DNA of 64,000 nt, from NCBI GenBank assembly GCA_043228905.1, contig JBHGNT010000011.1, positions 1,116,001 through 1,180,000 on the forward strand. The letters are read 5' to 3'. Each line of letters starts with the position of its first letter. Position 1 is the stretch's first letter. The stretch is from Azolla caroliniana (taxonomy: Eukaryota; Plantae; Polypodiophyta). Below the pieces are notes generated by a model. That model did not search any database. It saw nothing but the letters and a program-made list of their open reading frames with translations, and was not told the origin of the DNA. Below are positions 14,501 to 57,649 of this stretch, in pieces. The translations under genes were made by a program, and so were the position numbers.

Positions 14501-14552
14501 CTATTTTGGCGACCACGATTCCTGCAGAGTGCAGAGGACAACCGGGGGATGG

Positions 14553-20360: not shown

Positions 20361-20524
20361 TGCGGCATATGCTTTAAAAAAAAAAAATAAAAATAAAAAT
20401 GATGATGACGTGGTGCTACGGTCAAGAAAATTCAAGACAAGAAGATCAAGAAAATCATGGTAATGATGAAGGAGGTAGTTACAACCGTCACACGGGTGCA
20501 CGAGCTATTTAAAGCACAGAACGT

Positions 20525-20830: not shown

Positions 20831-20948
20831 GTTCACTTTTTACGAATTTTCCCACAAGCAAACGCAGGCTCAAGACAGCGAGATCCGACGCGCAGAACAC
20901 CTACACCCCGACCTCAGACCACAGGCAGCAGCAGACGAAGAAGAAGCG

Positions 20949-23786: not shown

Positions 23787-23836
23787 AGCCGGCTGTGGGT
23801 TCGAAGTGCAATGCACTTTCCCACGGGCGTGCCATG

Positions 23837-24207
23837 TGTTGGCCGGTCAGAGAAGGCAAATGGGAAAGCAAGGTCGGATCGGATAAATATAGAAATAGGA
23901 ATAGAATTATTAGGAGGGACGGATCCGGTAGTTGTAACCGATCCGGATCCGAACCGATTCGGTTTCGGTTAACGGTTGCCTACCGAGCACCGATTGTAAT
24001 CTGGCCGGATGCCTATAAAAGGATCCGATGTTTTGTAATGAAGTGACGAAGAATTAATATAGTTTTGCTTATGCTTATTGATCTTGTCTTCGTCTGTGCT
24101 TAAGTGTAATTATCATACGCGTGTATTAACATCCTATCCCTACCACCCCTTTGGAGAAGTGTCGGATAGACACCTGTGTTGCGGCTAGTCCAGCCATACA
24201 TACAACA
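23837..24207 (+). repeat. Gypsy-1 3' LTR
   Basis: Identical copy of 14130-14500, followed by TSD ACCAC. Confidence 0.97.
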
Positions 24208-26680: not shown

Positions 26681-26960
26681 GGATCCAAGGGTTCGTCACA
26701 GGCTTGAGGGTGGCTGAACAAGAGCTTGAGGATCCAAGCCTTCGTCACAGGCTTGAGGGGGAGCAACAAAGCCGTGAATACGTGAAGAAAGCCGCGCAAT
26801 GCCGCGCAACAAAGCCGCGGAGAACCGCGCAACGAAGCCGCGAAGACGCGAAGAAAGCCGCGCAACGCCGCGAAGGAAGCCGCAAGCCGCACCGATGCTG
26901 ACGAAGCCGAAGGAAGCTAAACTGGATGTTGGACGCCTCACACTTGAGCTTGAGGGGGCG

Positions 26961-27400
26961 TGTTGAGATATCAAGCTCAACTAGTTTAATCTAGTTAGTC
27001 AACACATGTAACTTAGTAGTTACCTAGATCGAATCTAGTTAATGTGTTGACCTTAAGCCTTTAAATAGGACCTTGTACTTAAGTGGGATATTCTAGATCC
27101 TCCACTCCTTAGTACATTTAATGTAGGACTTACACATAAGTACCTATGTTCTACCCACACATGTGCACCTTTGCACATGGGTTGTATATATACCTCATTG
27201 TGGGTATTTTTGTAGTTGATGACACTTTTCAATATAGTCAATCATCCCCCATTTATCTTTGTGTTCAAGTGTAACTTCCTCTCTCTCTCTCTTCCTCTCA
27301 CACACTCTCACGCGCATATCATACTAATCTTCCGCTGCTTAACGTAACCATATAATTAGTCTCTAATTAACCCTAGTTAATTACCTAATTACTTAAAACA
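26961..27400 (+). repeat. Copia-1 3' LTR (440 bp)
   Basis: Direct repeat of 13292-13729. Confidence 0.95.
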
Positions 27401-28118: not shown

Positions 28119-28866
28119 TGTCATGAACACATGACCATTATGGCGTCACCCGGACTTGAACCTTGAACCTTGTAATCCATAATTGAAAACCTCAACCATT
28201 AAGATAGCTTATTGTCATATGAGAGGATAAAAGGTACTTTTTGTACATTGATTATTGTAAAAACTCTAGAACATTATAGAAATCTCTAAGCTATTCTTAG
28301 GAACCTATAAATAAGGGCATACATGTATTCTCAAATCAATTCGAATCCACACCAATCTTTAACGATCATTACATATCTTGTATCCATTCTCTTTCTTTCT
28401 CTATCTTAATACACCCATTCTTCGCTTAGCATTTTGTTCCTTTCTTCTTGTGTTCTCTTATATCCTTCTTCCATCACTCTATCTTTTATTCTTGGTTTTG
28501 ATAGTTTGATTCGAATTCTCTCTCCCTCTCTCTCTCTCATCCTTGTCTATAACCATCACAAATCCATTCTCTTTCTTTCTCTATCTTAATACACCCATTC
28601 TTCTCTTAGCATTTTGTTCCTTTCTTCTTGTGTTCTATTATATCCTTCTTCTATCACTCCATCTTTTATTCTTGGTTATGATAGTTTGATTCGAATTCTC
28701 TCTCTCTCTCTCATCCTCCTCTATAACCATCACGAATCCATTCTCTTTCTTTCTCTATCTTAATACACCCATTCTTCTCTTAGCATTTTGTTCCATTCTT
28801 CTTGTGTTCTCTTATATCCTTCTTCCATCACTCCATCTTTTATTCTTGGTTCTGATAGTTTGATTC

Positions 28867-28903
<37 letters not shown>

Positions 28904-31900
28904 CTCCTCTATAACCATCACGAAACCATGGCCACCATTAACTCAGAAGAATATCTCACCCTTGTTGCAGAAATGGAGAATCTTAAATCCAAGTTCGCAT
29001 CTCTTGACGTAGAGAATCAACGCCTACTTGGGGATCTACAAAAGGTTACTATAGAGAAGCAACAACAACAAGGGGAGTTCACACGACGGATTCAATAGTT
29101 AGAGTCAATAATCGTAGTGTTACAACAACAAAGGGTCGAAGGTCAAGGACTTATCAAGGAGCCCAAAATCAGCTTCCCAGCTAAATTCCGAGGTTTCTTG
29201 AATCAAGTATGGTTGGTGATTCAAATGCATCCCACGCGTTATCCGACAGATGCATCACGAGTTGGGTTAGTGGGCACCTTATTGACTGGCATAATGTTAT
29301 TGTGGTTTACTCCATTGCTAGAGACAAATTCTCCTCTATTGAATAATTTCGAGGAATTTATCAAAGAATTTAAGGCTTGTTTCGGAGATACTGATGGGGC
29401 GAGAACAACTATCAACAAGATTCGTACACTACATCAAGGTGATAAGCCAGCTTCGACATATGCAACCAATTTCCTTCTCATCGCAAACTATATTCCTTGG
29501 GATGAACAAGCCCTAATGGAGCAATTCCGTTCAGGCATTCGTAGTGATGTGAAAGACTTACTTCTTACCTTCCCTGAGGATCCAAGGTCACTTACAGAAG
29601 CTATTAGTCAAGCAATACGGTGTGATAATCACCTTTTTGAGCGTCGATGTGAGCGACAACAACAAATAACAAGATCAAGATTCACACCAACTTATGCATA
29701 GTAACGACGCAATCATGCCCAAGGCAAACAAACAACCCTGCTCCAACTCCAAGGAAAACACGTAGTCCAGTCCCAATGGATAGTCCTACACCCATGAAGA
29801 TCGATATGACTCCATGACAAGGACCTTTGTCGGACGAAGAGAAGCAACGGCACCGAGCAAACCGTCTGTGCTTATATTGTGGAGGTCCAGGACATATAGT
29901 CATTCATTGCTCCCGTAGGCTGAGACGTCAGGTAAATCAAATTCACTATGACAATAAAAACGAGTCCAACATTTTAGAATCATTTAGTGAATCTAATATT
30001 ATGAATAATCCACACTTGTCCAATAAGTTTGAAGTCCTAAGACAATTAGAAGAGGATTCAAACGAATAAGTCCGGCCTAAATAGGAGCCATTTGGTTGGA
30101 CAACCCTAGATATATACAACTTAGTGTGGGTTCCATTTCTTCCAAGCATGTTAGTAGAGTCTTCTCAGCCCAAGTACAAGTTAGGACACCGAATTGCCCT
30201 CTTAGATATTGGAGCCAATTCTTGTTTCATGGATAGAGATTTTGCCCAAAAACACCAAATATCCTTGCATACACTTCCTTGTCCAGTTTCCGTAGTAGTG
30301 ATTGATGGATGTCCCATAACTTCCGCGAAGATATTTGAAGAGTCTGAGCCAATACACATACTCTTAGGTGATTTAGGATGTGTAGTTTCCTTTAACATAA
30401 TCCGTAGTCCTAAGCATCCAATTGTCCTCGGTTTGCCATGGTCCGAGCTACATAACCCTAGAATCGATTAGAGGAAGCGAGAAATTTGGTGCCCTTCAGC
30501 AGAAAATATCATTGCCAAGGATCGAACTTAGGATTATTCTCTTGAAGAATATAGTTCTAACAATGGAGCATCTTCTTTTCATCAAATTTCAGCCATCACA
30601 TTGCAACAATTGCGCCAAGAGGGAGGCAAGAAGGACCTTTTCTTATTTGCAGTATCAATGACACCTTCTAGTGCCACTCAAGGGAATTCAGACATCCAAA
30701 TTCCCAAAAAATATCAAGACAATGTTGATGTAATCGACAAAGTCAAAGCTAGTGTTCTTCCAAAGCATTGGACATACGACTGTCCTATTGATCTCCAACC
30801 AGGAAAAGAGCCACCGTGGGGTCCGATTTACAATTTATCACCCATTGAGCTTGAGGTTCTTCGAGAATACATCGAGGAAAATCTTGCACATGGGTTTATT
30901 CGACATTCAAAGTCTCTAGCTGATGCTCCCATCTTTTTTGTGAGGGAAAATGACAACTCCCTTTGTTTGGTCGTGGACTATCAAGGCTTAAATAAAGTCA
31001 CCATAAGGAATTGGTATGCTCTACCTTTAATCTCCAGTCTCTTAGAACGCATTGGTGGGGCAAAGTATTTTACCAAAATTGATCTCAGGGGTGCATATAA
31101 CCTTGTTCGAATTCGACCGGGAGATGAGTGGAAAATTGCATTTCGTACTCGGTATGGTCATTTCGAGTATACATTCATGCATTTCAGGCTCACAAATGCA
31201 TCCGCAATATTTCAACATATGGCAAATGACATTTTTCGGGATTTCTTGGATATCTTTCTCATCATCTACCTAGATGATCTGTTGATTTACTCTAAAACAC
31301 CGGAGGAGCATGATATACATGTGCGGAAAGTACATGAACGCCTAAGAAAGTATGGTCTTTATGCCAAACTTGAGAAATGCAGTTTTGATTGCAAACAAGT
31401 CTAATTTTTGGGATACACTATTTCATCCAAGGGTATTTTCATGGATCCGGAAAAAGTCCAAACAATATTGGAATGGAAACCCCCATGCTCAGTTCGGGAC
31501 GTCTAGTGTTTCCTCGGATTTGCGAACTTCTATCGCAAATTCATACATAATTATTCAAACATTGTGTTGCCCCTCACCCAACTCACCAAGAAAAATCAAG
31601 CATTTTTTTTGGAGTACCGAAGCGGACAAGGCTTTTACTCAATTGAAAGAGGCATTCACATCAACACCTATCCTAGCGCATATTGAGGCGGATGTGTCAG
31701 ACTTCACATTGGGGTGTATCCTATCACAACCAGGCGAGGAGGGGCAGACTCATCAAGTCGCATTTCACTCGAGAAAATTTACTGTTTTGGAGATAAACTA
31801 TGAGGTGCATGATAAGGAGTTACTAGTTGTGGTCGACTCATTCGAGCAATAACGTGATTTTCTAGAAGGATCGCCTCATCAGATTATCATTTATAGTGAT

Positions 31901-31957
31901 CACAAAAATCTCACATATTTTCAAATAGCTCGAGTATTAAATAGATGACAAGCTCGG
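28119..31957 (+). mobile_element. Tcn1-like chromovirus element A (degenerate): 5' LTR, gag, PR, RT, partial RNase H; 3' part absent from the window
   Basis: LTR begins TGTCATG at 28119, TATA ~28306, LTR end ~28503, gag ATG 28928 (MATINSEEYL), LLDIGANSCF, YLDD. Cut in RNase H (LNR*QAR) by element B. Confidence 0.88.
28382..28923 (+). repeat. Three tandem ~175-190 bp copies of the U5 + PBS + leader of element A
   Basis: Units start at 28382, 28562 and 28736. Each has ...TGATAGTTTGATTCGAATTC(TC)n...ATAACCATCAC. Confidence 0.93.
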
Positions 31958-32249
31958 TGTCATGCTATGGCAAGACTCGAACCCATGGACTTATGTTATG
32001 TGGGTCGAGCTCTTGACCATTATACGATCTATTGTAATACGTAGGATATTATTTTCATTTAAGTTTTATTATAGGAAATTAATGTACGTTCCAGATTTCT
32101 CTAGAACATTCCAGAAGCTTCAAGATTACTCCTGAGAACACTATAAAAGAAGGCACTAGGCATTATTTTGAACCAAATTGGTTCAACGCCAGTCTTAAGC
32201 CTCATAGCCCTTTTGTACTTACTCTTCACATAATATATCCTCTGGTATC

Positions 32250-32292
<43 letters not shown>

Positions 32293-35200
32293 CTCTCTTC
32301 CTCTCTCGGGAGTCTTACGCAGTCCTATCCTCTTAGTACTAATAGTACTTCCCTTTTCCAGTACTAATTCTCTCTCTGTTTTAGTACTATTCCTGACAGT
32401 TAGAACTAATTTCCCCCTCAAGTCTACGTGTCGTTTTTCCTCATCCTCCTACCCTTTTTCCTATACTATGGCTACTATTAGTGCCCAAGAATATCAATCT
32501 GTTTTCTACAAGCTACAATGTGTAAAAGAAAAATGTGTTGCCTTGGAACAAGAAAACCAACGGTTGATATGGGATCTGCAACAAATCGCTCTCAAAAAAC
32601 AACAAACGCAGCAACAACATGGGGAGTTAGCGTTACGGGTACAACAACTCGAAGCAGTGTTGCAACAATAAGGATCAAGTCCCCAAGGATTTCATAAAGA
32701 GCCCAAGATTGGACTTCCTATGAAATTTGATGGAACGTGATCACAATTCAGGGGATTCCTTAATCAGGTACGCTTAGTCATCCAAATGCATCCTTCCCAA
32801 TACCCCACTGATGCATCCCGAGTCGGTCTAATAAGCACGTTGCTTAGCGGCTCAGCCTTGGCATGGTTCACTCTGCTTCTAGAAAAACAATCACCCTTGC
32901 TTAATAACTTTGAAGACTTTATTAGTGAGTTTAAAGCCTGCTTTGGAGATACCGACAACATCTGGACAACGATCAACAAAATCCAACGATTGCGTCAAGG
33001 CGATCGTCCAGCCTCTACCTACACAGCGGATTTCCGTCTACTCACCTCAGATATCCCCTGGGATGATCAGGCACTAATGGAGCAGTTTCGCTACGGCCTG
33101 CGAAATGATGTCAAAGATTTACTTTTAACCTTCACCGAAGAACCAAAGTCTCTTACGGAGGCAATCAGTCGAGCGGTCCGATGCGACAACCTCCTTTTCG
33201 AACGGCGTTCGGAACGTCAATTACAAATACCACACTCTAGGCCAGAGTCCACTTACGCCTCAGTTGCGGCTAAACCGTTTGCACTCGACATACCTCAAGC
33301 AAATACTCCGACACCCATGGAGATCGGCACCATGCGTCGACGTGGCCCGTTATCGGAAGAAGAAAAACAACAACGACGTGCAAATCGATTATGTCTTTAT
33401 TGCGGTGGACCAGGGCATATCGCAATCAATTGTCCCCATAGACCAAGAAGACAGGTAAATCAAATCGTAGCCTGTACTAAACCTGAGTCAATTCTTCCCT
33501 TAGGAGTATCTGATAGTATTAATAATACTAATAGAATGTCTGATAGTATTAATAGTACTAATAGCCCTAGTATCTCAAACAAATTTGAAATCCTTAGTCA
33601 ATTAGATGAAGAGTTAAACGATTGAGTCTAGCCAAAATAGGAGTCGTTTGGTTGGACAACCCCAGATCTGTACAGCCCATTAGTGGTTCCATTCCCTCCA
33701 AGAAAGTTAGCAATGTGTTCCTAGCCCAAGTCATGGTTAGTACTAAAATTACTCCCCCAATACACGTCCTAGCACTTCTAGATTCCGGAGCTAATTCCTG
33801 TTTCATGGATCGAAATTTTGCCCAAGCTTCTCAGATATCCTTAAGAAAACTTCCTTGCCCCACATCTATAGTAGTCATTGATGGTCGTCCCATTGCTTCC
33901 GGGAATATTGTAGAAGAGTCAGAACCCATTCAAGTTGTCCTAGGTAGTTTTGTGTGTATAGTATCATTTAATATAATTAGTAGTCCAGAGCATCCCATTG
34001 TCTTGGGATTACCTTGGTTTGAATTACATAATCTAGACATAGATTGGAGAACAAGAGAAGTTCGATATCGACAACCCCAAGAATCTACTCATCGAGTTTC
34101 GACCATTTCACTCCATCAATTACGCGAAGAAGGACACAAGGAGGCAATGTTCCTATTTGCAATATCAGTACATCCTTCCAACACTATTAAGAAGGAATCC
34201 CTAGTGCAACTGCCGATGTCGTGAAGATTTTCGTCCATAGGCGGAAACCGGGGTGGAAAGGCCAAGTCAGTGGTCTGCAACATGTGCACACGTGTACTAG
34301 GAAATGGTGTATAGAAATAAGAGGGGAAATTTTATCCCACATTGTAAGGTCCCTCCCTCCTTGGGGTATAAAAGGAAGGGAGGGGTCACTTATGAAGGGG
34401 TTGCCTATTTTGCGTATAAAAGGTATACCACTTAGCCTAGAGTTCTTACCGTTTTAGGGTTAGGGTTTCATTTAGGGTTTTCCTTATTCATCTTCGGTTA
34501 GGGTTTTCTCATAGTCGTTTGGTGCGGCCCATGCGGCCACCACTGTTGTAATCATTCGTTCGTTTTAATATAACTTGTTGAGTATCTTACCTCCACCGAT
34601 CTCTCCTCCTATGTCATGATCTTATTCTTTCTCCTCTACTCTCTAGTCCGAGACCCCCGTGGTCCCGACCCTTCCACACGCACGCGCGTAACAACGCGAC
34701 ATCTTTGGTGAACCCCACGTGAAGGACGGCAAGGGAGCATGGAGATGGAAGAAGACTTCGACTTCGAGGAGATGATGGCAAAGATCATGATGGAAGCCGG
34801 ACGGAAGATGGCGACGCGAGACGCGGCTCATCAAGTCGTCGAAAGGGTGGTCGATCGAGTCGGCCGGTTCAATGGGAATGAGGTCCCAAAATTTTTGGGA
34901 GCCTACAAGGCCGAGATGGCGAAAGGGGGCATGGACGAGGCGATGGGGCTAGAGTATTTTCCTCGAGTGGCGTCCGTATCGATGCACAAGGAGGTCAAGG
35001 AGCTACGAGAAGCTCACGAGTCGTGGGTGTCCTTTGAGGGAGCTCTATTGGACGCATACGATTATGCGAAACCGGAGTGGGTATGCCGGTAACCCTATGG
35101 GGAGTGGTCGGCAACAACGTGGCCCACAAGCGGCGGAGAAGAGAGGGCGGTGAGCGGCTATGCACTACCGTCGAAAGAGAGCTCGACGCGCGATCAACCG

Positions 35201-38200
35201 GAGGAGTACGACCTAGAGGCGTTGGTATGGGAGGCGTGCGAGAGCGTGAAGGTGAAGTTCGAAGCTAAAGAAGGGCTTATTATGGAGTCGGGCCGGAGAC
35301 GATCCGAGGATGCGGAGGAAGAAGCCTCCCTATGCGTGGACGATGGGGCCTATACGGAGGCCGGAAGAGCATGCAACGGCGACAATGTGGGAGAAGGTGC
35401 AGGGCAAGCGACCCTCTCGTCCTGCAGAAAAGGGACAGTTGTGGACGAGGCCGGTGACTACGAAGCGGGGAGCACCACTTCGAGAGTGGGCGGAGGTTTC
35501 GGGACACATGAGAGCGGAGAGACGGAAGGTGGCGACGGCAAAGCGGATGACCGAAATGACAACGAAGAAGGTCATAGCGGATGGAGGAAAGACCCCTCGA
35601 CACCGAGACTGGAGACTACGACGGTTGCCCTCGAATGCTAACATAAGACCGGAGAGAAGGGCGGTGGCCGTGAGGAGGCGTGGCCCGGAGCGAACACGTA
35701 CGAAGATGAGGATGCGAGGCCCCGAAAGGTACCGAAGGAGAGGCCGGGAGCGGCATCAAGGAGAGAGTCGGGAACCGACCCGAGCGGAAGATAAACCGGT
35801 CGGTAATCGGACATGACCGGAAGACGACGCGGAAGAAGATTGGAGCAAGGGCCGGTCAACCGGGCCCGAATGGAAGAAGAGCTGGCAAGGCCGGAATTGT
35901 TTTGCAATCACGAAAGGGAGCCGACCGAACCAGAGCATGATCAATCGGGATCAAACGGGGGAAGGACCAAACCGGCATGATTGGAGATCGGGAAGACGAG
36001 TCGCAACACATGGTGGGAGCCAGTGAGCATGAGAAGGAGGCCAAGCGGGCATGATGACTACGGTTCCGTGGAAGACCGGAAACGAGCAGGACCCTCCCCA
36101 CCTATTCTAGAGACTTTGGCGGTTGCGGATCAACATAAGACCGGAGAGACGGCGGGTGGCGGCGAGGAGTTGGAGACCGGAACGGACGAGGCTACCGGAA
36201 TGGGTACACGGTGCATGAAGACGGACGAGCACGGCCAAGAGGGCCAAACAGAGACGGAAGGGTCTACGACGACAAAGGAAGAAGAGGCCGACGCGGAGGT
36301 CAGGACTACGGCGGAAGAAGCGTGTAACACGAAGCATGCATTACGGCGTAAAACGGAGCATGCACTACGGCCGACGAAGGGCCAAGAAGCAAGCATGCAG
36401 CCGGAAGAGCGGCAACGAGTGACCGGCAACGGCGGACCGGTCGAGCCTTTGAGAGGCAAGCACGCTGTCACGTTGTTACGCGCGTGCGTGTAGAAGGGGC
36501 AGGACCACGGGGGTCTTGGACTAGGGAGTAGAGGAGAAAGAATAAGATATGAGAAATGGAAGCTTAACACCGGATGAGAAGATGAAGAGTAGCACATAAG
36601 CATAGACCAAAATAGATGGAAGCAAGATCCACAACAAGATATATTAAAACGAACGATTGATTACAACGATGGTGGCCGCATGGACCGCACCAAAACTATG
36701 AGAAAACCCTAACCGGGGATGAACAAGGAGACCCTAAACGAAACCCTAACCCTAAAACGGTAAGAACTCTACACTAAGTAGTATACCTTCCATACGCAAA
36801 ATTGGCAACCCTTCATAAGTGACCCCACCCCTCGCGTACCGCTTGTGTTCTATCTCCGGCTCGATCCTCTCTTCGTCTCGAACACCTCGTGTTGATTCCC
36901 TCCATTCCGCGCTCACCTTCCATAGGCTCTTTCCATGTGCCCTTGTTGTCTCTCGAACATGCGCTCATTGTTTTGTCCCTTGGCGACCTCATTACGTGCT
37001 CCTCGCTTCTCCTTTGCTCGCCATGCTCTCTCGCCGTAGAGTGTACCGTCATCCCGACCACCATGTCAGTGTCCTTCGCGACTCCCGTTACCGCTTCATC
37101 CTGACTCTCGTCCTGTTGGCCCACTTGGCCTCGCAACCCTTTGTCCTCCACGCACCATCCTTCGCTCTCACCGTTTGTCCGTCGATCTCGGCATCTTGTC
37201 GCTTCGTCTCTCGCCACCCTTTTGCCTCTCAAAGGCTCGACGAGACCGCTATCACCGGTCACTCGTTGTGGCTCGTCCGAATACATGCTCGTTTCTTGGC
37301 CCTCGAGCGGCCGTAGTGCATGCTTCCCATTCCGCCCTTCACTCATTGTAGTCCTGACCTCTGCATCGGTCTCTTCGTCCTTCGTTGCCGTAGCCCCTTC
37401 TGCCTCCGGCTTGCCGTCTTGGCCCCGCTTGTCCATCTTTCCGCATTGGATATCCTCTCTGATCCCCGATTCTACATTGGCCTCCAACTCCTCGCCGCCA
37501 CCCGTCGTCCCTTTGGTCTTACGTTGATCCACAACCGCCAAAGTCTCTAGAATAGGTGTGGAGGGCTCCTCTCGCTCTTGGCCTCCCACCGAGTCGTACT
37601 CCTCATGCATGCTTGGCCTCAACCTCCAATCATGCCGACTTAGCCTTCGCCCTGATCGGTCTCGGCCGATCGAGTTCCGGTTTGGTCGGCTCCCTTTTGT
37701 AATCGTAACCGGCCGGTACATGTTCGTCCGAACAAATCCGGCCTTGCCGGCTCTTCTTCGGTTCGGGCCCGGTTGACCAGACCCCGCTCCAATCTTCTTC
37801 CACGTCGTCTTACGGTCGTGTTGGATTATCGATCGGTTCATCTTCCGGTCGGGTCGGTTCCCGACTCTCTCCTCTTTGCCGCTCCCGACCTCTCCGTCGG
37901 TCCTCTTGTATATGCCCGTTCCGGGCCTTGCATCCTCATCTTCGTACGTGTTCGCTCCGGGCCACGCCTCCTCATGGCCACCCCCTTCTCTCCGGTCTTA
38001 TGTTGGCATTCGAGCGCAACCGCCGTAGTCTCCGGTCTCGGTGTCGAGGGGTCTCTCCTCCGTCTGCTATGACCTTCCTCGTCGTCGTTTCAATCATCCG
38101 CTTTGCCGCCGCCACCTTCTGTCTCTCTGGTCTCACGTGGGATCTCGGGGCCGACCGCCAAAGTCTCTAGAATAGGTGTGGGAAAAGTCTCGGTAGCATC

Positions 38201-38427
38201 ACTCGCCGATGTCATGTTTGTAGCCACCTTCGTTCGGACGCCATGGTCCGTGGCTATGTCGTCCCCGGTTACGCAAGCCTCGGTTATGCTTGCTACCTCC
38301 TTGTCCTCATCCTCGTCTCGGTTGCTGTCAGGAACAGTACTGAGACAGAGAAGAAATTAGTACTAAACCAAGGATTAGTACTATGAGAGGTGTGGAACTT
38401 CTTCGAGAGAAGGAAGAAGTGAGCGAG

Positions 38428-38507
<80 letters not shown>

Positions 38508-41500
38508 TGATGATAAGAAAGATATGTATGATATGAAGAGAATATACAATGGTGGCTAAAAGGCTTAAGACTGGCGTTGAACCAATTTGGTTCAATATAA
38601 TGCCTAGTGCCCTCTTTTATAGTGTTTTCAGGAGTAATCCTAAAGCTTCTAGAATGTTCCAGAGAAATCTGGAATATACACTAATTTCCTATAATAAAAT
38701 GTAAATGAAAATAATATCCTACAATGATCTAATGGTGAAGAGCTCGACCCATATAACCTAAGGTCATGGGTTCGAGTCTTGCCATATCATGACACTATCC
38801 TCCCTTTAAAATGACGAGTGTCACGAGTCGTCTTGGATTGAGGACCTGGTTTGTGTGGATATTGACGATGGAAGTCTTCAAGAAGAGCACGAGCATTGGT
38901 CACATTCTCGATCGGTTCCCAAGTACGTTCGTTGGGGCTATAGCCTAGCCAATCGACTAGATAGTAGAGCTTGTTGCGAACAATCTTGGAATCAAGGATG
39001 GCGGCAACCTCATACTCCGGCCCATCTTCAAGCTCGATCGGGGGTAGAGGTTGGATAAGACGTCCTGGGATGGTGCTCTCGTGGTAGGGTTCGAGGAGAG
39101 AACTATGAAACACCGGATGTATCCGAAGTTGAGGAGGTAGATCGAGACGAAAAGCGACATCATTAATCTGTCCAATAATACGGAAAGGACCTAATCGCCG
39201 ATAATCTAACTTCTCACATGAATGACTAGTCTTGATGTGTCGTCGTAGTAGCCACACCCGATCTCCAATATTAAAACTGGATGGAAGTCGAAGACGATCC
39301 GCGTAGACCTTGTGTGTTTGTTGAGCTTGCTGGAGATGAGTAGATAAATCTGCTTGTATCTTGCGTAACTGCTCCAAACAATCCTCCGTGCACGGATTTG
39401 TGGACACCTTTGGGGTTTCAAGTACACTCCACCGGGGGTGACATCCCGTATAAGCATAAAATGGCGTAACTTTAGTGGATGCATGGATAGAGTTGTTATA
39501 GGCAAATTCGGCAAAGTGGAGAATATCTACCTAGTCATCTTGATGATAGCTGAGAAAGCACCGCAGATACTGCTCCAGTGTTTGATTTGTTCGTTCAACT
39601 TGGCCATCGGTTTGTGGGTGGTAGCCGGAGGAGAGGTTACAAGTGACCTTGAGCATGTTAAAAAGGTGCTTCTAGAATTTTGACACGAACTGGGGTCCAC
39701 GGTCGTTGATGATACTATCAGGAAGTCCATGATGCCGACATACTTCACGCATGACAATTTCGGCAGTGTCTTCACTGGAGATCTCCTTAGTACATGGCAA
39801 GAAATGAGCCATCTTCGTATATCGATCGACCACCGTTAGAATCGCATTGAACCCCTTAGAGACTGGAAGATCTGTGATGAAGTCTAGAGCCATGGATTGC
39901 CACGACTTGCTTGGAATTGGTAATGGTTCTAATAAAGCATATGGATGATGCCTTGGCATTTTCGCTCTACAACATGTATCACAAGTCCGAACAAAATCCT
40001 CGGCAAATTGTCGCATACAGGGCCACCAAAATGTTCGTTGTACTAAATGTAATGTTTTAGTATTACCAAAATGCCCAACTGTATATGTGTCATGACAGTT
40101 TTGTACTACTCGAAGGCGGCAAGAACCATTAGGAACATACAAAAGTTCTTTAAAGAAGAGTAATCCATCATGGTATTTGAATTGCCGATAGTCCGTACCT
40201 GGTGGTTGCGACTGTGAACACGACGCTCGAGAGGGATCAATTTGTGCTAGTATAGCTTGGGCGAACGCATCTGTCTTCAAGTCTTCACGTATGGTATCGA
40301 TAACGCGGGAATTCATAGGCATGTCAAAGATCTATGTTGCTTGTAGCCGTGCCGGTCCCAAGATGACTTGTTTTTGGTTATCGAAAACTGGCTCGCCGGG
40401 ACGGGGTGCTAGATACGAACGTCGTGATAATGCATCTACCTTCCCTTGGTGCCTCCCCGGACGATATGTAATTTTGAAGTCGAAACGTGTGAGGAAGTGG
40501 ACCCACCGAGCTTGATGTCGATTCAACACACGAGCATCCTGAAAGTAGGCAAGATTTTTGTGGTCACTAAATACGGTGACTAGATGAGAGGATCCCTCCA
40601 GAAAATGCCTCCATTGCATAAAAGAATCCACTATTGCCAATAGCTCCTTATCATGAATTTCGTAGTTGATTTCGGCGGCGTCAAACTTCCGTGAGTGAAA
40701 AGCCACAAGATGTAGCTTCTCATCATTCCCCTGTTGTGACAGAATGCTCCCCAATGCAAAATCCGATGCGTCAGCTTCGATAATGAATGGTTTTTCCGGA
40801 TCAACATGAGCTAGAATTGGAGCCGATGTAAATGCCTTTTTAAGACTCTCGAAAGCCATGTCCGTTTCTTCAGACCAGATGAACGGTTGTCCCTTCTTGG
40901 TAAGTTGTGTGAGAGGTAGAACGATCTTTGAGTAATCTTGTATAAACTTCCGGTAAAAATTGGCAAAGCCTAAGAAGCATTGCACATCCCGCACCGAACG
41001 CGGACTCTGCCATTCTAGGTCACCGTTTTGACCTTAGCTGGGTCCATGGAGATGCCTTCTGACGAAATGATGTAGCCGAGAAATTCCACTTGGTTGCACC
41101 CAAAACTACATTTTTCTAGCTTTGCATACAGACCATGTTCTCGAAGTCGTTTTAGTACTAATAGTACATGAGAATCATGTTCTTCTTGGGTCTTTGAATA
41201 AACCAGTAGATCATCCAAATAGATGATCAAACAATCATCCAATAGATCTCGGAATATATCATTCGCCATGTGCTGGAAGACTGTCGGCGCATTAGTGAGG
41301 CCGAACGGCATGACCGTCTTCCATTCGTCTCTTGGTCGGATCCGTACGAGGTTATATGCTCCCCGTAAGTCAATCTTCGTGAAGAACCTGGCACCATTGA
41401 TCCGTTCTAAAAGACTTGAGATAAGGGGAAGAGCATACCTATTCCTGATTGTAACCTTATTCAAGCCACGGTAATCTACAACGAGACGAAGTGATCCATC

Positions 41501-42890
41501 TGTTTTCTTGACGAAGAAAATGGGCCCGCCGGCTGGAGATTTCGAATGCTGAATGAAACCATTTTCCAAATTCTCCTCTATATAGGCCCGAAGGACTTCC
41601 AGCTCGGTTGGTGACAAATTGTAGATCGGTCCCCATGGCGGCTCTTTTCCCGGTTGTAAATCGATGGGGCAATCGTACGGTTGATGATGAGGAAGTGTGT
41701 TGGCTTGTACTTTATCGAACACATCGGCGTAATGACGATACTTCTCGGGAAGTTGAACAGTGGATTCTTCTTTAGTGGTGCTGGAGGGGTTTACTGATAT
41801 TGCAAAGAGGAACATTTCCTCCTTGCGCCCTTCTTTACGCAACTGACGTAGCGAAATGGTTGCCATCTTCTGATTTGACCCTTGGGTTTGTCGACACTGG
41901 ATTTCTCTTGTTCTCCAATCTATGTCTGGGTTATGTAACTCGAACAATGGTAATCCTAAAACTATAGGATGTTCTGGGATACTAATATTATTAAATGATA
42001 CTACACATGCTAAGTTATCTAGGACAATATTAATGGGCTCTGACTCTTCTATGATATTTCCGGAAGCAATGGGACGTCCATCAATGACTACTACAGAGGC
42101 TGGACACTGGAGTTTTCTTAGGGATATCTTATGAGCTTGAGCAAATTTCTTATCCATAAAGCAAGAGTTAGCTCTGGAATCTAGGAGTGCTAGGACATGT
42201 ACTGGAGGGGTACTTTTAATAATAACTATTACTTGGGCTACGAACACATCACTAACTTTCTTAGAGGGAATGGAACCACTAATGGGCTGCACAGATCTAG
42301 GGCTGTCCAACCAAATGGCTCCTATTTTGGCTGGACTTAGTCGTTTAACTCTTCTTCTAGCTGACTAAGGACATCAAATTTGTTTGCTAGATCTGGGATA
42401 TTAGTACTATAAGGACTATCAGATATCCCTACTGAAATAGGCTCGGGTTTAGTACAATTAGAACTAGCGACTATTTGGTTTACCTGTCTTCTTGGCCTAT
42501 GGGGGCAATTTATTGCGATATGTCCTGGTCCACTGCAGTAAAGACATAGTCAATTTGTACAGCGTTGCTGCTTTTCTTCTTCGGATAATGGTCCTCGACG
42601 ACGTGTAGTGTCAATCTCCATCGGAGTCAGAGTATTCGCTGGAGGCGCATTATATGACTCCCTCGAAAAAGGTCTTGCTACCACTGAGGCGTAGGTGGGC
42701 TCTGATCTTGCCCTCGGCATCTGTAGTTGTCGTTCCGAACGTCGCTCAAAGAGGCGGTTGTCACATCTCACCGCGCGACTGATTGGTTCTGTTAAGGACT
42801 TTGGCTCTTCGGGGAAGGTCAAGAGTAAATCCTTGACGTCGTTGCGTAAACCATAACGGAATTGCTCCATCAACGCTTGATCATCCCAAG

Positions 42891-43158
42891 TGACGGGAAC
42901 TGGTCGTTCCTTATGCGCAACGCTCGGCCACAACCGAGCTTGTAATGATACACAGAAAACGGGAAATAAAACACGACAGGAAGAAGAGAAAGATACACAG
43001 GAGGTTTACGTGGAAAACCCCAAACTAAGGGAAAAACCACGGCAGCCAACACGCTGCAAACTGTCACTATGTAAGAATATACAACAGTGAGTTCACTGAG
43101 GCACCGACCTCGTTCTCACAAATCTTCGCCACAGACGGCGGTTACAACGGAGGCAATG

Positions 43159-43210
<52 letters not shown>

Positions 43211-43780
43211 AGTTACGCACACTGATCTCGTGCAAAACAGAAAATGACAACAACAATAAAAGTTTGCCCTAAGTCATATTTATACTAATATGACTTTTAG
43301 GCTATTTACAAATATAGCCTCGATGGGCTCTCAGAAACATATTTACGAATATGTCTCTTCGTCCGGTTCTCATCGGGTCTGTACGATTCGGTTCTCCATA
43401 ACCGGGTACTCCTCATCCGGTCTTCTCACCGGGTCTGTACCATCCGGTTCTCCGTAATCCGGTACTCCTCATCCGGTCTTCACCGGGTCTGTATCATCCG
43501 GCTCTCCATAGCCGGGTACTCCTCATCCGGTCTTCACCAGGTCTGTATCATCCGGCTCTCCGTAGCCGGGTACTCCTCATCCGGTCTTCACCAGGTCTGT
43601 ATCATCCGGCTCTCCGTAGCCGGGTACTCCTCATCCGGTCTTCATCGGGTCTGTATCATCCGGCTCTCCGTAGCCGGGTACTCCTCATCCGGTCTCGGCC
43701 TCCGCCTATCGGCCTCGGCTGAGTTTGTTCATCGGCACTGTTCTTCTCCCTTCCCATCCGGAGGGACCTGTCTCCCAACA
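42891..43780 (-). mobile_element. Solo LTR D (890 bp) inserted in the gag of element C
   Basis: TG..CA ends, TSD CCAAG (42886-42890 / 43781-43785), minus-strand TATAAATA ~43278-43285, no coding region. Confidence 0.9.
43362..43695. repeat. ~52-54 bp CCGG-rich tandem repeat, about 6 copies, in solo LTR D
   Basis: Unit approximately CCGGGTACTCCTCATCCGGTCTTCACCRGGTCTGTATCATCCGGCTCTCCGTAG. Confidence 0.92.
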
Positions 43781-46700
43781 CCAAGGGATATCGGCGGCGT
43801 GTAGGCGAAAATCTGCAGCGTATGCTGAGGCTGGACGGTCACCTTGGCGTAATCGCCGGAATTTGTTGATTGCGGTCTTGATGCTGTCAGTATCTCCGAA
43901 ACATGCTTTAAACTCACCTAGAAACTCTTCAAAATTGTTGAGTAACGGAGATTCCTTTTCTAATAGTGGAGCGAACCATGACAACGCTGACCACTTAACA
44001 AAGTGCCTACTAAACCCACTCGTGATGCATTGGTGGGATATCGGGAAGGATGCATTTGAATAACTAATCGTACCTGGTTAAGGAACCCTCTAAACTGCGA
44101 TCCCGTTCCATCGAACTTCGTGAGAAGGCCAATCTTGGGTTCTTTATGAATCCCTTGTGTTCCGGGCCCTTATTGTTGCATTGCTACGATGGTTGCTTCG
44201 AGTTGTTGCACGCGTAACGCAAGTTCCCCATGTTGTTGTTGCGTTTGCTACTTCTCTAAGGAGATTTGTTGAAGATCCCCCAGCAACCGTTGGTTTTCTT
44301 GTTCCAAAGCATGGAACTTCTCCTTCAAGCATTGAAATTCTGAGAAAACAGATTGATATTCTTCTGTGCTAACAGTGGCCATGGGATAAAAGAAAAGAGG
44401 AATAAAAGATTAGTAGGAAATGAGAGAGACAGAAGGTAGGGAAAATTGGTTCAAACTATTAGGAACAGTATTGAGACAAAGAAGAAATTAGTACTAAACG
44501 AAGGATTAGTACTATGAGAGGTGTGGAACTTCTTCGAGAGAAGGAAGAAGTGAGCGAGACGGAGAGAAAGAGAGAGAGAGAGTGATAAGAAAGATATGTA
44601 TTATATGAAGAGAATATACAATGGTGGCTAAAAGGCTTAAGACTGGGGTTGAACCAATTTGGTTCAATATAATGCATGGTGCCCTCTTTTATAGTGTTTT
44701 CAGGAGTAATCCTGAAGCTTCTAGAATGTTCCAAAGAAATCTGGAATATACACTAATTTCCTATAATAAAATGTAAATGAAAATAATATTCTACGTATTA
44801 CAATAGATGATCTAATGGTCAAGAGCTCGACCCATATAACCTAAGGTCATGGGTTCGAGTCTTCTCATATCATGACAGTTGCCCGCCTTGCCGTCGCCAC
44901 CGCCCGTCACTCTAGGACTCATGTCGGCACTCGGGTCGACCGCCGGAGTTTCTAGGACCTGGTACCACCGCTCGTTGTGTCCGTAGCCACCTCCGTCTGG
45001 ACGTCTTCGTCTCGATTGCCCGCCTTGCCGCCGCTACCGCCCGTCGCTCTAGGTCTCACGCCGGCACTCGGGCCGACCGCCGGAGCCTCTAGGACCGGTG
45101 TGTGTAAGGTCGCGGCACCGCCGCTCGTTACCTCCCCACTCGATGTTTCGGGCTGCCATGTCCCGAATCCGTAGTTACCGACCTCCATGGCCGTCCCTTC
45201 ACCGCAAGGCAAGAGGTTCGCTTGCTCTGCACCCTCTCCCATGTCGCCGCCCCGTCTTCTACGCTTAGGGAGGCTTCTTCCTCCGCATCCTCCGATCGCC
45301 TACGACCCGACTCCATAATAAGCCCTTCTTCAGCTTCAATTTTCCCCTTCACAAGCTCGCATGCCTCCCGTATTAGCGCTTCTAGGTCGAGCTCCTCCGA
45401 ACCGTTTTGCGTTGAGCTCTCTTCCGGCGGTAGTGCGTACTCACTTGCCGCTCTCTCTTCTCCACCGCTCGCGGGCCACGTTGTTGCCGACCGCTCCCCA
45501 TCGGGTTGCCGGCATACCCACTCCGGTTTCGCATATCCGTATGCGTCCAATAAAGCTCCCTCAAAGGACTCCCATGACTCGTGAGCTTCTCATAGCTCCT
45601 TGACCTCCTTGTGCACCGATACGGCCGCCACTCGAGGAAAATACTCTAGTCGCATCGCCTCGTCCACGCCCCCTTTCGCCATCTCGGCCTTGTAGGCTCC
45701 CAAAAATTTTGGGACCTCGTTCCCATTGAACCGGCCGACTCAATCGACCACCCTTTCGACGGCTTGTTGAGTCGCATCTCGCTTCGCCATCTTCCGTCCA
45801 GCTTCCATCACGATCTTTGCCATCATCTCCTCGAAGTCGAAGTCTTCTTCCATCTCCATGCTCCCTTGTTGCCCTTCATGTCAGGTTCACCAAAGATGTC
45901 GCGTTGTTACGCGCGTGCGTGTAGAAGGGGCGGGACCACGGGGGTCTTGGACTAGGGAGTAGAGGAGAAAGAATAAGATATGAGAAATGGAAGCTTAACA
46001 CCGGATGAGAAGATGAAGAGTAGCACATAAGCATAGACCAAAATAGATGGAAGCAAGATCCACAACAAGATATATTAAAATGAACGATTGATTACAACGA
46101 TGGTGGCCACATGGACCGCACCAAAACTATGAGAAAACCTAAACGAAACCCTAACCCTAAAACGGTAAGAACTCTACACTAAGTGGTATACCTTTCATAC
46201 ACAAAATAAGCAACCCTTCATAAGTGACCCCTCCCTTCCTTTTATAGCCCAAGGAGGGAGGGACCTTACAATGTGGGATAAAATTTCCCCTCTTATTTCT
46301 ATACACCATTTCCTAGTAATCATGTGCACATGTTGCACACCACCGACTTGCCCTTTCCACCCTGGTTTCTGCCTATGGACGAAAATCTTCACGACAACGC
46401 TGCAAGAGACGGAGCGGTGAGTTGCCGGGATCGGCGGATGAACGACAAAAGTGGAGGATGGTACGTGGAGAGCAAAGAGTTATGCACCGGGGAGAGACAA
46501 AGCGGCTTCTCGGAGGGCATGCAAGGCCAATCGGGCCAAGACGGCGCAAGTCGAGGCGAGGTGGTAATGACAGCCTCGAGGGACACTGACACGGAGGTCG
46601 GGATGACAATACGCTCTACGGCGAGAGAGCACGGAGAGCAAGGGAGAATCAAGGTGCGCATAATGGGGTCATCTAACGAAGGATTGTGTCTGGGAAAATG

Positions 46701-49700
46701 AAGGAGATGCGTGGAGAACGGAGGGTCGCATACTGTGAAGAGCAAATGGGGCATCCCGAAGGATGTGTGCGGCCGAGCGGGCCAGGCGGACCAAGAGGGT
46801 GTACCTCGGGGCGAAGCGGCAACATAAGAGGTTACGGAGGACACCGAAGACGATAGCACCGACTCGAATGTCGGGGAAGCAACGTACCTTTTTGAAAGGG
46901 TATGTAAAGCGGAGCGGAGTGCGAGATGTGCGATGTGGCCGCGTAAGGGTTGAGCGACGAGCACGAGGATGATCAACGACAAAGTTCGTCGCGTGACACT
47001 ACCGAGTCGAGGAAACGGCCGAGGCGAGACAAGCGTGGACGAAGAGCGCAGGTTTGCGAAGACCGGGTCTGGCGGACCGGGCGGAGACAGTGGTTCAACG
47101 AACTCCGTCGAGTATGGTGGATCGGATGGAGCCGACGGTTCGAGAGCATACGACGGATAAGGCGGACCGGGAGGCTACGGTGGTCCATGTGGGACAGATG
47201 GGCTTGCTCGAAGTGGAAGACGAAGTCGGGCAAAGCTGACAAAGATGCTAAGGACTCGGTTGATCGCCATGGCCGAAAATCTCACCTCTTTCCCCTTCCC
47301 TGCACATACCGGTGGATGTGCGGTTTGGTGGGGGCGGATGTCGTGAAGATTTTCGTCCATAGGCGGAAACCGGGGTGGAAAGGGCAAGTCGGTGGTGTGC
47401 AACATGTGCACACGTGTACTAGGAAAAGGTGTATAGAAATAAGAGGGGAAATTTTGTCCCACATTGTAAGGTCCCTCCCTCCTTGGGCTATAAAAGGAAG
47501 GGAGGGGTCACTTATGAAGGGGTTGCCTATTTTGCGTATAAAAGGTATACCACTTAGCCTAGAGTTCTTACCGTTTTAGGGTTAGGGTTTCGTTTAGGGT
47601 TTTCCTTATTCATCTCCGGTTAGGGTTCTTCTCCTCTTGAGCTAAGCTTCCAAACATATCTTATTCTTTCTCCTCTACTCCCTAGTCTGAGACCCCCGTG
47701 GTCCCGCCCCTTCTACACGCACGCGCGTAACAACGCGACACCGGCAAAATATCATCCTTATGTCGATGTATTTGACAAGGTAAAAGCCGGTACTCTTCCT
47801 CATCATCGTCCCTATGATTGTCCCATTGATTTACAACCAAGAACAGAGCCACCATGGGGACCAATTTACAACTTGTCACCCATCGAGTTAGAAGTCCTTC
47901 GAGCCTACATAGAGGAGAACTTGGCAAGCGGGTTTGTTCGTCATTCAACATCTCCGGCCGGTGCACCCATCTTCTTTGTCAAGAAGAAAGATGGCTCACT
48001 TCGTCTCATCGTTGATTACCGCGGCTTGAATAAAGTCACCATCCGGAATAGGTATGCACTTCCTCTTATATCAAGTCTTTTAGAGCGAGTTAATGGTGCC
48101 AAGTTTTTTACAAAAATCGATCTACAAGGAGCGTATAACCTCATACGGATCCGATCGGGAGATGAATGGAAGACCACCTTTCGTACGCGGTATGGGCATT
48201 TCGAATATATTGTTATACCGTTCGGTCTAACCAATGCACCCGCAGTCTTCCAACACATGGCAAATGATATATTCAGAGACCTCTTGGATATCTGTATGAT
48301 CATCTATCTGGATGATCTATTGATTTATTTGAAGACCCAGGAAGAGCACGATTCTCATGTACTATTAGTACTAAAATGACTCCGCGAGAACGATCTTTAT
48401 GCCAAGGTAGAAAAATGTAGCTTTGATTGCAAGCAAGTGGAATTTCTAGTTACATCATCTCCTCAAAGGGCATCTCCATGGATCCAGCTAAAGTCCAAAC
48501 TGTGCTAGAGTGGCAAATTCCACGGTCTGTTCGAGATGTACAATGTATTCTAGGTTTGCTAACTTCTACCGCAAGTTTTATACAGGATTACTCGAAGATT
48601 ATTTTACCTCTCACACAACATACGAAGAAGGGACAAGCATTTCTTTGGTCCAATGAAGCGGATATGGCTTTTCGGCATCTTAAGAAAGCCTTTAGATCAG
48701 CTCCTATTCTAGCTCATGTGGATACAAGCAAACCGGTCATCATGGAGGCCGACGCATTGGATTTCGCCCTCGGTAGCATCCTTTCTCAACAAGGAGATAA
48801 AGAAGAGTTACATCCTGTGGCTTTCCATTCGAGCAAATTCGATGCCAGGGAAATCAACTACGAAATACATGACAAGGAGTTATTAGCCATCGTGGATTCC
48901 TTTATGCAATGGCAACATTTCTTAGAGGGCTCTCCACATCAGGTCATTGTCTTTAGTGATCACAAAAATCTTGCTTATTTCCAAAACGCTCGGGTGCTAA
49001 ATCGACGGCAAGCTCGGTCAGCTCAATTCCTCACGCGTTTTGACTTCAAAATCACATATCGACCGGGGAAGCAGCAAGGAAAAGCAGATGCGCTATCACG
49101 AAATTCATATCTTGCACCTCGTCCTGGTGATCCAGCGTTTGATAATCAAAAGCAAGTAATCTTGGGACCAACACGATTGCACACAACGCGGATTTTTCAC
49201 ACCCCAATGGATTCCCGGATTACCGATGCCATACGTGCGAATTTGAAGACAGACAGTTTTGCTCAAGACATTCTGGCGCACATTGATACCTCTCGGGCAT
49301 CCTGTTCCCAATCTCAACAACCAGGTATGGACTACCAACAATTTGAATATTATGATGGTTTGTTATTCTTTAAAAAGCTTCTATATGTCCCCGATTGCTC
49401 CTGTCGCCTTCAAATCGTCCAAAATTGTCACGACACCCATACGGCGGGACATTTTGGTAGTACAAAGACGTTGGATCTCGTTCAACGATCTTTTTGGTGG
49501 CCCCATATGCGACGTTTTGTCAACAACTACGTTCGGACTTGTGATGCTTGCTGCCGAGCAAAGATGCTCCGACACCATCCATATGGCTTGTTGGAACCCT
49601 TACCGATTCCAAGTAAGCCGTGGCAGTCTATTTGTCTTGATTTTATCACAGATCTGCCGGTCTCGAAGGGGTTCGATGCTATCTTAACCGTCGTCGATCG

Positions 49701-50838
49701 ATATACTAAGATGGCACATTTTGTGCCGTGTACTAAGGCCATCACTAGCGAGGAAACCGCCGCCCTTGTCATGCGTGAGGTATTTCGGCATCATGGCCTC
49801 CCAGACAGTATCATCAGTGTCTGAGGACCTCAATTCGTCTCCAAATTTTGGCAGCATCTCTTCAAGATGCTCATGGTCTCTTGCAACCTCTCCTCCGGCT
49901 ACCATCCCCAGACCGATGGGCAGGCGGAACGAACAAACCAAACGCTGGAACAATATGTCCGGTGTTTTCTGAGTTATCAACAGGACGATTGGGCCGAGAT
50001 TCTCCACTTTGCGGATTTTGCATATAATAATGTTGTTCACTCATTGACTCAGGTCTCCCCATTTTACGCTTATACCGGTTCTCATCCTCGCTGGTCGGTG
50101 ATCGACACCCCGGAGCTACCTACCAATCCTCGTGCCGAGGATCATTTGGAGAGGCTACGCAAGATCCAGATGGATCTCTCTACTCATCTTCGTCATGCTC
50201 AACACACACAGAAGACTTATGCGGATCGTCATCGGCTTCCCTCCTCTTTTGCCATCGGAGATCGAGTATGGCTCTTACGTCGTCACATCAAGACTACTCG
50301 ACCGTGTGACAAGTTGGATTATCGACGACTCGGTCCTTTCCGTATTACTAGTAAGGTTAATGATGTCACGTTCCGCCTTGATCTCCCTCCACATCTTTAG
50401 ATACATCCGGTTTTCTATAGCTCTCTTCTTGAACCTTATAAAGCAAACACTATTCCCGATCGTGTTACGCCACCGCTACCCCCGCTTGAGTTGGAAGTCG
50501 GCCCGGAGTATGAAGTTGTTGTCGTCCTCGATTCCAAACTTGTTCGCAACAAACTTTATTATTTGGTCGATTGGCTCAGCTATAGTCCAAGCGACCGTAC
50601 TTGGGAAACTGTCGAGCATGTCACCAATGCTCAGGATCTTCTTGCTGAGTTCCACCGAAAGTATCCGGACAAACCCGGTCCACAATCAGCGCTGACTCGT
50701 TCCACTCGTCGTCTTAAGAGGGAGATAATGTCATGATATGGCAAGACTCGAATCTGTGACCTTATGTTATATGGGTCGAGCTCTTGACCATTATACCATC
50801 TATTATAATACGTAGGATATTATTTTCATTTAAGTTTT

Positions 50839-50926
50839 TGTTGCAGAAAAGGTCGTCTATGCGGAAGATCAAGAAGCATTCGATTCTGTTCTGTACCTGC
50901 GTATGACAGTTTCTAGGTCGTTGCAC

Positions 50927-50969
<43 letters not shown>

Positions 50970-56966: not shown

Positions 56967-56973
56967 CGCCTTT

Positions 56974-57649
56974 TGACATAATGTCCTTATGAGGGTAGTT
57001 AAGCCTCATATTTATACCTTTTCCTAGGCCCCTTGAATAGATGTGCCTTTCTAAAAGGCTCTCCATTCATTGGTTGTCCAAATCATGATAGTGCATGCAC
57101 CTATCATTCCTTCTATCCAATCATTGGTCCCCTTTTTAACATTAGTGAACATACCCTTCACTAATGTAAATATTAGTGACCTACCCTCACCAACGTTATG
57201 TGTACATAAAATTTACTATTGGTCAAAAAGTTTTTTTGCGTGTCCCAACTGACTCTATGTCATTGTCTACGAGCAAGTGCATTAAGTTAACCGCACAATA
57301 TTGTGGCCCATTTCAAATCCTTAAGCGAGTTGGTGAACATACCTGTCACTTATGTTATGTACAATAGTACCCTTCACTTATGTTATTTACTATGTTTTTG
57401 ACCAATAGTAAATGTTATGTACACATAACATAGGGGAGGGTAGGTCACTAATATTACATAAGTGAAGGGTATGTTCACTAATGTTAAAAAGGGACTAATG
57501 TGATTGGATAGAAGGAAGGATAGGTGCATGCACTATCATGATATGGACAACCAATGAATGGAGAGTCTTTTAGAAAGGTACATCTATTCAAGCAGCCTAG
57601 CGAGAGGTATAAACATGAGGCTTAGCTACCCTCATAGGGGATTACATCA
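56974..57649. repeat. Long foldback: ~255-bp imperfect inverted arms around a ~165-bp spacer carrying a Gypsy integrase C-terminal fragment
   Basis: 56974-~57229 is the reverse complement of ~57395-57649. The arm end plus spacer reads KFTIGQKVFLRV...KLTAQYCGPFQILKRVG (GPY/F motif). Confidence 0.88.

Follow-up and report, generated by a model that had tools for sequence, protein, structure and literature searches.

Three Tcn1-like chromoviruses, here designated A, B and C, lie in a 64,000-nucleotide (nt) stretch of the genome of the fern Azolla caroliniana (GenBank assembly GCA_043228905.1, contig JBHGNT010000011.1, positions 1,116,001 to 1,180,000 of the forward strand; this whole stretch is the window throughout, and its first letter is position 1). 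All five copies of their long terminal repeats (LTRs) carry near the outer tip, backwards with respect to the element, an A box and a B box arranged as in the type-2 promoter of RNA polymerase III (Pol III). Here we show that this module recurs at almost constant spacing in the LTRs of the window's clade and is conserved beyond the U3 sequence that flanks it. From these comparisons we regard it as a real and non-random feature, evidently retained by selection, and as a variation on the theme of a Pol III promoter within an LTR. [quoted passage not shown] The backward placement, the Pol II promoter and the long retention together imply another job, most likely one at the level of chromatin.

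The ten boxes (five A and five B) lie exactly where a previous sequence-only reading had placed them, antisense to the element, pointing outward and with a spacer of 33 nt in each pair:

28196 to 28206, minus strand: A box of element A (tRNA positions 8-19, without G10)
28152 to 28162, minus strand: B box of element A (tRNA positions 52-62)
32017 to 32027, minus strand: A box in the 5' LTR of element B
31973 to 31983, minus strand: B box in the 5' LTR of element B
38725 to 38735, plus strand: A box in the 3' LTR of element C
38769 to 38779, plus strand: B box in the 3' LTR of element C
44808 to 44818, plus strand: A box in the 5' LTR of element C
44852 to 44862, plus strand: B box in the 5' LTR of element C
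50788 to 50798, minus strand: A box in the 3' LTR of element B
50744 to 50754, minus strand: B box in the 3' LTR of element B (one mismatch)

The first base of the A box stands 70-88 nt from the LTR tip in these copies. A scan of the entire window on both strands, allowing at most one mismatch per box and a spacing of 28-45 nt, recovered the five LTR sites and no others, each with a 33-nt spacer; 60 block-wise dinucleotide shuffles averaged 0.3 sites and never exceeded 2. Since the motif for that scan had been written after the copies were seen, the test was redone with the published type-2 consensus, TRGYNNARNNG and GGTTCRANYCY as given in PMC12498455, and with the spacing left free between 30 and 60 nt. 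Each of the five copies outscored all 100 shuffled versions of its LTR start, with one mismatch in total and again at 33 nt. The boxes are thus present in all five copies, as had been claimed; however, the LTRs of B and C are 86-89% alike, so that the window offers two independent cases and not five.

Retention of the boxes among relatives

Relatives were fetched from metagenomes with an integrase-chromodomain alignment, blind to the boxes, in a scan that covered 20 of 64 parts. The best 79 of 519 loci were taken, and the 54 with at least 85 nt of 3' LTR were counted, the other 25 being dropped for an LTR start that was unlocated or shorter than this. On a protein tree composed of unnamed loci only, the window's clade had support of 98/91 (88/90 in a reduced tree); L046 was assigned to it by LTR likeness, both L046 and L066 being too short for the tree. 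With the published consensus and free spacing as before, 16 of the 17 LTRs in this clade beat their shuffles (p<=0.05), and in all 17 the best pair is antisense and spaced by 32 or 33 nt, although in L053 only as a tie. Three of six LTRs beat their shuffles in the sister group IIa, where L036 is a perfect match at 33 nt and where the B boxes of L033 and L034 are clear but their A partners uncertain. Group IIb gave one LTR in 11, with three mismatches in its B box, and the remaining loci none in 20, which amounts to 1 of 31 beyond the two carrier groups. The wider claim, that the module belongs to Tcn1-type LTRs at large, therefore stands for the window's clade and for part of IIa and fails for the Tcn1 clade as a whole: the module is missing from 30 of the 31 other LTRs, and the LTR start of SM-Tcn1 from Selaginella (PMC2864245, supplement S3), inspected by eye, has no such boxes.

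Across the 380,315 bases of these loci, 14 of the 20 pairs with at most two mismatches are spaced by 32 or 33 nt, and all 14 are antisense and at an LTR start; a sense-strand pair with one mismatch occurs once, in L009. A profile built solely from the modules also found, at 29.7 bits, an unrelated tRNA-like stretch outside any LTR in L038. This tRNA- or SINE-like stretch (SINE, short interspersed nuclear element; L038:11750-11810, minus strand) has both boxes and a run of five T and is not within an evident LTR. As a separate observation, the first 7 nt of the B box are tandemly duplicated in two distant families, at 28156-28169 in the window and at about 4510-4525 in L033.

A single clade of carriers was rejected by the approximately unbiased (AU) test (p 2e-7; 15 versus 14 rows, with two blurred cases taken as non-carriers), at least two changes being required. 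The distribution of carriers therefore does not establish a single origin and would fit either two gains or a single gain followed by several losses. Scans of viral contigs found no relative. A 501-nt LTR stretch matched about 2,300-3,600 distinct contigs per sequencing run in four of four runs, a figure that is not a copy number. One sequencing-run contig (116 nt, depth 2.8) that matches 44795-44860 of the window reads as an 85-nt tandem or circular unit containing the module. Two runs taken to be RNA gave two low-depth contigs in one case and none in the other; contigs reveal neither strand nor start, so that these bear on expression in neither direction.

The chief test set by the sequence-only reading was whether boxes and spacing are kept beyond the flanking U3, and across these divergent relatives they are. 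Nine representatives were anchored on their best box pair, which somewhat inflates box identity; mean pairwise column identity was 0.63 for the A box, 0.62 for positions 20-26, 0.88 for positions 44-48 and 0.75 for the B box, compared with 0.34 for the anticodon arm, 0.29 downstream and 0.40 upstream. The best-kept segment is thus the variable-loop motif at positions 44-48, which lay outside the box search. T8, R15, G19, G53, T54, T55, R57 and A58 are kept in all nine representatives, and A14, G18, C56 and C61 in eight. Inner U3 can be strongly aligned for only one of 36 representative pairs, giving eight unalignable LTR lineages, and the distance from the B box to the LTR tip ranges from 15 to 53 nt across the clade; the integrase-chromodomain proteins are mostly 50-76% identical. 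A and B boxes that match the type-2 consensus at a distance of 30-60 nt are present, with G10 missing in five of the nine. Counted in bins of 10 nt, AT content over the 50 nt upstream of the A box is 50-100% in these representatives, with most bins at 70-100%; CAA occurs near +1 in five of them, and the position of a TATA upstream of the A box is not fixed. Plant tRNA genes likewise have an AT-rich upstream stretch (PMC3082873).

The register of the module supports the proposed derivation from tRNA. In tRNA numbering, a tRNA with a short variable loop gives an A-B spacing of 32-33 nt, and the 32/33-nt spacer places the 44-48 motif exactly at the variable loop, which argues for descent from a tRNA or a SINE head. 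We infer that the module was captured from a tRNA gene or the head of a SINE. It might of course be no more than a neutral relic of such an insertion in an ancestral LTR, and the patchiness of the module is in keeping with this: it is lost or blurred in L018, L021, L025 and 10 of the 11 group IIb LTRs, carriers do not form one clade, and single copies in L053 and L011 have damaged boxes. However, a relic would not be expected to hold its boxes across eight LTR lineages that can no longer be aligned while the 17-nt arm between them and both flanks have fallen to background, and we consider this already disfavoured explanation scarcely probable.

Self-priming Tcn1-like elements

The assignment of the elements to the Tcn1 type, and the prediction that they prime their own reverse transcription, are both borne out by domain order, by the aromatic cage and by the complementarity of self-primer and primer-binding site (PBS). 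Pfam searches across A, B and C recovered gag, protease, reverse transcriptase, RNase H, integrase and SH3 domains, with Chromo scored in C only; the order is that of Ty3/gypsy elements with a C-terminal chromodomain, as in a Tcn1-clade chromovirus. In the translation of C, residues Y, W and Y occupy what we take to be the cage positions of the chromodomain. The parts of the elements on which the argument draws are as follows:

28119 to 28503, plus strand: 5' LTR of element A (end approximate; the R-U5-PBS unit is tandemly repeated to about 28870)
28306 to 28313, plus strand: TATA of A, predicted Pol II promoter
28338 to 28347, plus strand: predicted 5' end of the genomic RNA of A (self-primer), complementary to 28508-28517
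28508 to 28517, plus strand: self-priming PBS of A
31958 to 32398, plus strand: 5' LTR of element B, inserted into the RNase H region of A
50729 to 50838, plus strand: 3' LTR of element B, cut after 110 nt by a copia LTR (50839-51155)
38326 to 38794, minus strand: 3' LTR of element C, preceded by a polypurine tract (PPT) at about 38807-38795
38787 to 39530, minus strand: integrase C-terminus of C with SH3 and chromodomain, aromatic-cage residues present
44457 to 44877, minus strand: 5' LTR of element C, with a TSD (target-site duplication) of 5 bp at 44878-44882 and 38321-38325
44686 to 44693, minus strand: TATA of C (predicted Pol II promoter), which lies 114 nt further in than the A box
44649 to 44660, minus strand: predicted 5' end of the genomic RNA of C (self-primer, 12 nt)
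44443 to 44454, minus strand: self-priming PBS of C, 2 nt after the LTR

A TATA had been placed about 100-120 nt inward of the module and is found 98-114 nt inward of the A box in each full LTR. The self-primer, of 10-12 nt, lies 31-33 nt after the TATA and is complementary to the sequence just past the LTR in A, C, L005, L007, L010, L018 and L021. These self-primer/PBS pairs show matched changes specific to each family; of the 29 cases examined seven are clear, the junction being absent from many; the PBS of B has two mismatches. Self-priming has been predicted for Tcn1 elements (PMC6317226). [quoted passage not shown] Two observations on these sites stand apart. In C (44667-44649, minus strand), and likewise in B and in the 3' LTR of C, a 9-bp inverted repeat has the predicted RNA 5' end as its right arm and a left arm similar to the PBS, and in element A the R/U5 end and PBS occur in three tandem copies of 174-180 nt (28343-28870), giving three candidate primer-binding sites.

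The Tcn1 clade as described in PMC6317226 and PMC2864245 shares with the elements of the window a cage chromodomain, a self-priming PBS, TG...CA LTRs, a 5-bp TSD and a non-seed-plant host. Moss and club-moss hosts are given there, and Pol III boxes go unmentioned in the available text of these papers, whereas the fern elements here have them. That text also reports no evidence of self-priming for SM-Tcn1 (PMC2864245), although 14 nt after its 5' LTR appear by eye to be complementary to a site about 31 nt past a TATA-like run (supplement S3, about 393-406 and 499-512).

The self-primer bears on a reading in which the boxes act in the sense RNA, with U3 annealing a host tRNA or a tRNA-binding protein during reverse transcription or packaging. 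In Ty3, segments of U3 base-pair with the primer tRNA at its T and D arms (PMC5371799), and the module here has the orientation that such pairing requires. However, with a PBS of 10-12 nt that is served by the element itself there is no primer tRNA to be bridged. Moreover, where Ty3 is tRNA-primed and matches one tRNA (PMC5371799), the elements here keep only positions universal among tRNAs, and the variable ones coincide with the degenerate positions of the promoter. A role in the sense RNA therefore seems quite improbable.

DNA-level and RNA-level readings of the module

The module does not behave as a tRNA. Acceptor and anticodon stems are paired at 42% and 40%, confirming the poor cloverleaf that had been noted, and D and T stems at 66% and 65%. 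ARAGORN found no tRNA at the window copies, relaxed thresholds yielding noise only, and Rfam called none there at threshold; no cloverleaf thus reaches the thresholds of tRNA finders. With Rfam RF00005, L010 (15.8 bits) and L036 (11.6 bits; cut-off 29) were weakly matched at the right place and strand, and L004 and element C of the window were unmatched. A working tRNA was rejected, its acceptor and anticodon stems being lost. That the promoter positions are kept while the anticodon arm and flanks are at background and the cloverleaf is gone points to selection at the level of DNA, on a putative type-2 Pol III promoter.

Several known systems resemble this arrangement in part. Cassandra, a terminal-repeat retrotransposon in miniature (TRIM) that had been offered as a precedent, does have a Pol III internal promoter in plant LTRs (PMC10886601, PMC12786077), and a 2025 review treats it as the exception to Pol II transcription among LTR retrotransposons (PMC12786077); its boxes, however, are of the 5S type-1 kind, in sense orientation, in a non-coding element for which transcription has been shown. 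Helenus/TRIMp3 is the closer precedent (Kojima 2024, PMC10886601). It likewise has a sequence resembling tRNA within its LTR, with boxes A and B conserved and a working tRNA unlikely; a SINE insertion was proposed as its origin, and one family is present in Selaginella. Helenus elements are non-autonomous, 311-1263 bp long and tRNA-primed, with a Pol III promoter proposed for the genomic RNA (sense orientation being implied), whereas the elements described here encode gag-pol, prime themselves, carry the module antisense and have a separate TATA for the genomic RNA. They share with Helenus/TRIMp3 the tRNA-derived LTR sequence, and neither the non-autonomous, non-coding state nor the genomic-RNA promoter and tRNA PBS. 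The same paper holds that autonomous counterparts must use Pol II promoters; it analysed only elements below 1 kb, and it observes that among the LTRs in Repbase 'not a few' look like part of a tRNA (PMC10886601). The microRNA (miRNA) cluster of bovine leukemia virus also places type-2 Pol III promoters in an autonomous reverse-transcribing element, where they produce defined miRNAs (PMC12498455), whereas the module here is without an evident conserved product. No Pol III boxes in LTRs of autonomous chromoviruses were reported in the literature surveyed, which was judged mostly by title and opening lines of the abstract and did not extend to Repbase or to the supplements of the Helenus paper and the large ones of PMC6317226. 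Pol III units occur in the LTRs of foamy virus and murine leukemia virus (MLV), and a tRNA-gene-like sequence is reported in the U3-R of HIV-1.

We favour, tentatively and as a plausible reading to which we would give slightly less than even confidence, that the module is a type-2 Pol III promoter retained because of what it does at the level of DNA, as a TFIIIC/TFIIIB site that holds the Pol II promoter of the element open. On this reading, a worn tRNA-derived sequence would sit backwards at the outer tip of U3 in self-priming fern chromoviruses, TFIIIC would bind its A and B boxes, and TFIIIB would be loaded on the AT-rich block between A box and TATA. The two factors would leave the edge of the 5' LTR poor in nucleosomes or make it a boundary, and the Pol II promoter would stay open, shielded from the surrounding heterochromatin. 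The module might in addition halt transcripts reading in from outside, which would be relevant as the primer is the exact 5' end of the element's RNA. Parallels exist outside autonomous LTR elements. tRNA genes sit in nucleosome-poor regions (PMC11346459), TFIIIC occupies boundaries and B2 SINEs serve as mobile ones (PMC8136502), and TFIIIC sites in yeast block read-in Pol II transcription (PMC4228148). In these cases, too, a type-2 promoter adjoins a Pol II promoter that lies on the opposite strand, and chromatin is affected, but the sequence belongs to the host or to a SINE, in yeast or mouse, and is not a fixed part of an autonomous LTR (PMC8136502, PMC11346459, PMC4228148).

The proposal would explain, in a form open to test, how elements that are thought to insert in silent chromatin remain expressible. 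It also predicts that fern genomes contain a large, mobile reservoir of TFIIIC sites. An aromatic-cage chromodomain is generally thought to direct insertion to silent chromatin. A stronger form, which we consider somewhat unlikely, is that autonomous chromoviruses have co-opted the promoter of a tRNA gene as an insulator that travels with them and faces outward, opening chromatin beside the Pol II promoter and scattering sites for Pol III factors; if so, each new insertion would bring its own TFIIIC/TFIIIB site, very many across fern genomes.

Several observations weigh against a role in holding the Pol II promoter open. Related Tcn1-type elements manage without the module (30 of 31 LTRs, and SM-Tcn1 by eye), and the same complex at the 3' LTR would stand in the way of the Pol II transcript made by the element itself. 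For a mere barrier the B box alone may be enough. The A-box G10, 98% conserved in the published matrix (PMC12498455), is kept in only four of nine representatives, and the B2 boundary limited the spread of active chromatin, which is the reverse of the benefit proposed here (PMC8136502). Finally, positions 11 and 24 of the D stem form a pair in all 19 rows, with exchange among CG, UA and UG, and this together with an A-B spacing fixed within 1 nt hints at a constraint on RNA.

Such a constraint would be expected if the module were a working Pol III gene whose RNA matters, either as an antisense transcript from the 3' LTR across the PPT and the end of integrase, for copy-number control, or as a short tRNA-like RNA. 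The retention of both boxes, of their fixed spacing and of the AT-rich block upstream is equally in line with this, as are the better-paired D and T stems. No run of four T (T4) was found within 700 nt antisense of the window's two 3' LTRs, so that a transcript would span the PPT, and antisense RNAs of Ty1 are known to restrict its transposition (PMC12786077). The covariation score was reached by only 5 of 500 shuffles, although related sequences attain such a rank by chance in 5-25% of null alignments, and the loss of the acceptor and anticodon stems runs counter to a tRNA-like product. The predicted ends of the RNA also vary widely among families, T4 lying from 0 to more than 700 nt past the B box; a T4 terminator falls within the LTR in just 10 of the 21 copies from the clade, all five window copies lacking one there, so that the RNAs have no 3' end in common. 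A product that ends at a common 3' position or folds fully as a tRNA is thus unlikely, a small constraint on the D arm is possible, and a function through the RNA is on balance doubtful.

It has also to be considered that a Pol III complex serves integration or nuclear positioning, as a landing pad for this or other elements or as a tether for unintegrated DNA. The copia LTR that interrupts the 3' LTR of B has its junction (50838/50839) 41 nt upstream of the A box there, as a landing pad would lead one to expect; this is, however, a single event, no target-site duplication was found for that copia LTR, and a carrier gains no clear benefit from being a target. We consider this explanation highly improbable, and a site kept for its effect on the neighbouring Pol II promoter remains the reading that we prefer.

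Surroundings of the module in the window

The window is a nest of retroelements flanked by an FAE1/KCS-type gene and a DUF936 gene. The DUF936 protein scores 481-503 bits against fern proteins and at most 241 against the other 14 of the 17 named proteins compared. Element C spans 38326-44877 with gag-pol remnants, its two LTRs are 96% alike, and a 54-nt tandem array lies within it at 43355-43697. The remainder of the 3' LTR of B was not found beyond the copia element. A further Ty3/gypsy element occupies 13292-27396, with LTRs that are 99% alike, no chromodomain hit, an open frame of 1032 codons (20688-23786) without a Pfam match and a 36-nt tandem array at 14938-15205. An inverted repeat at 56968-57655, with 264-nt arms that are 90% alike, is possibly a miniature inverted-repeat transposable element (MITE).

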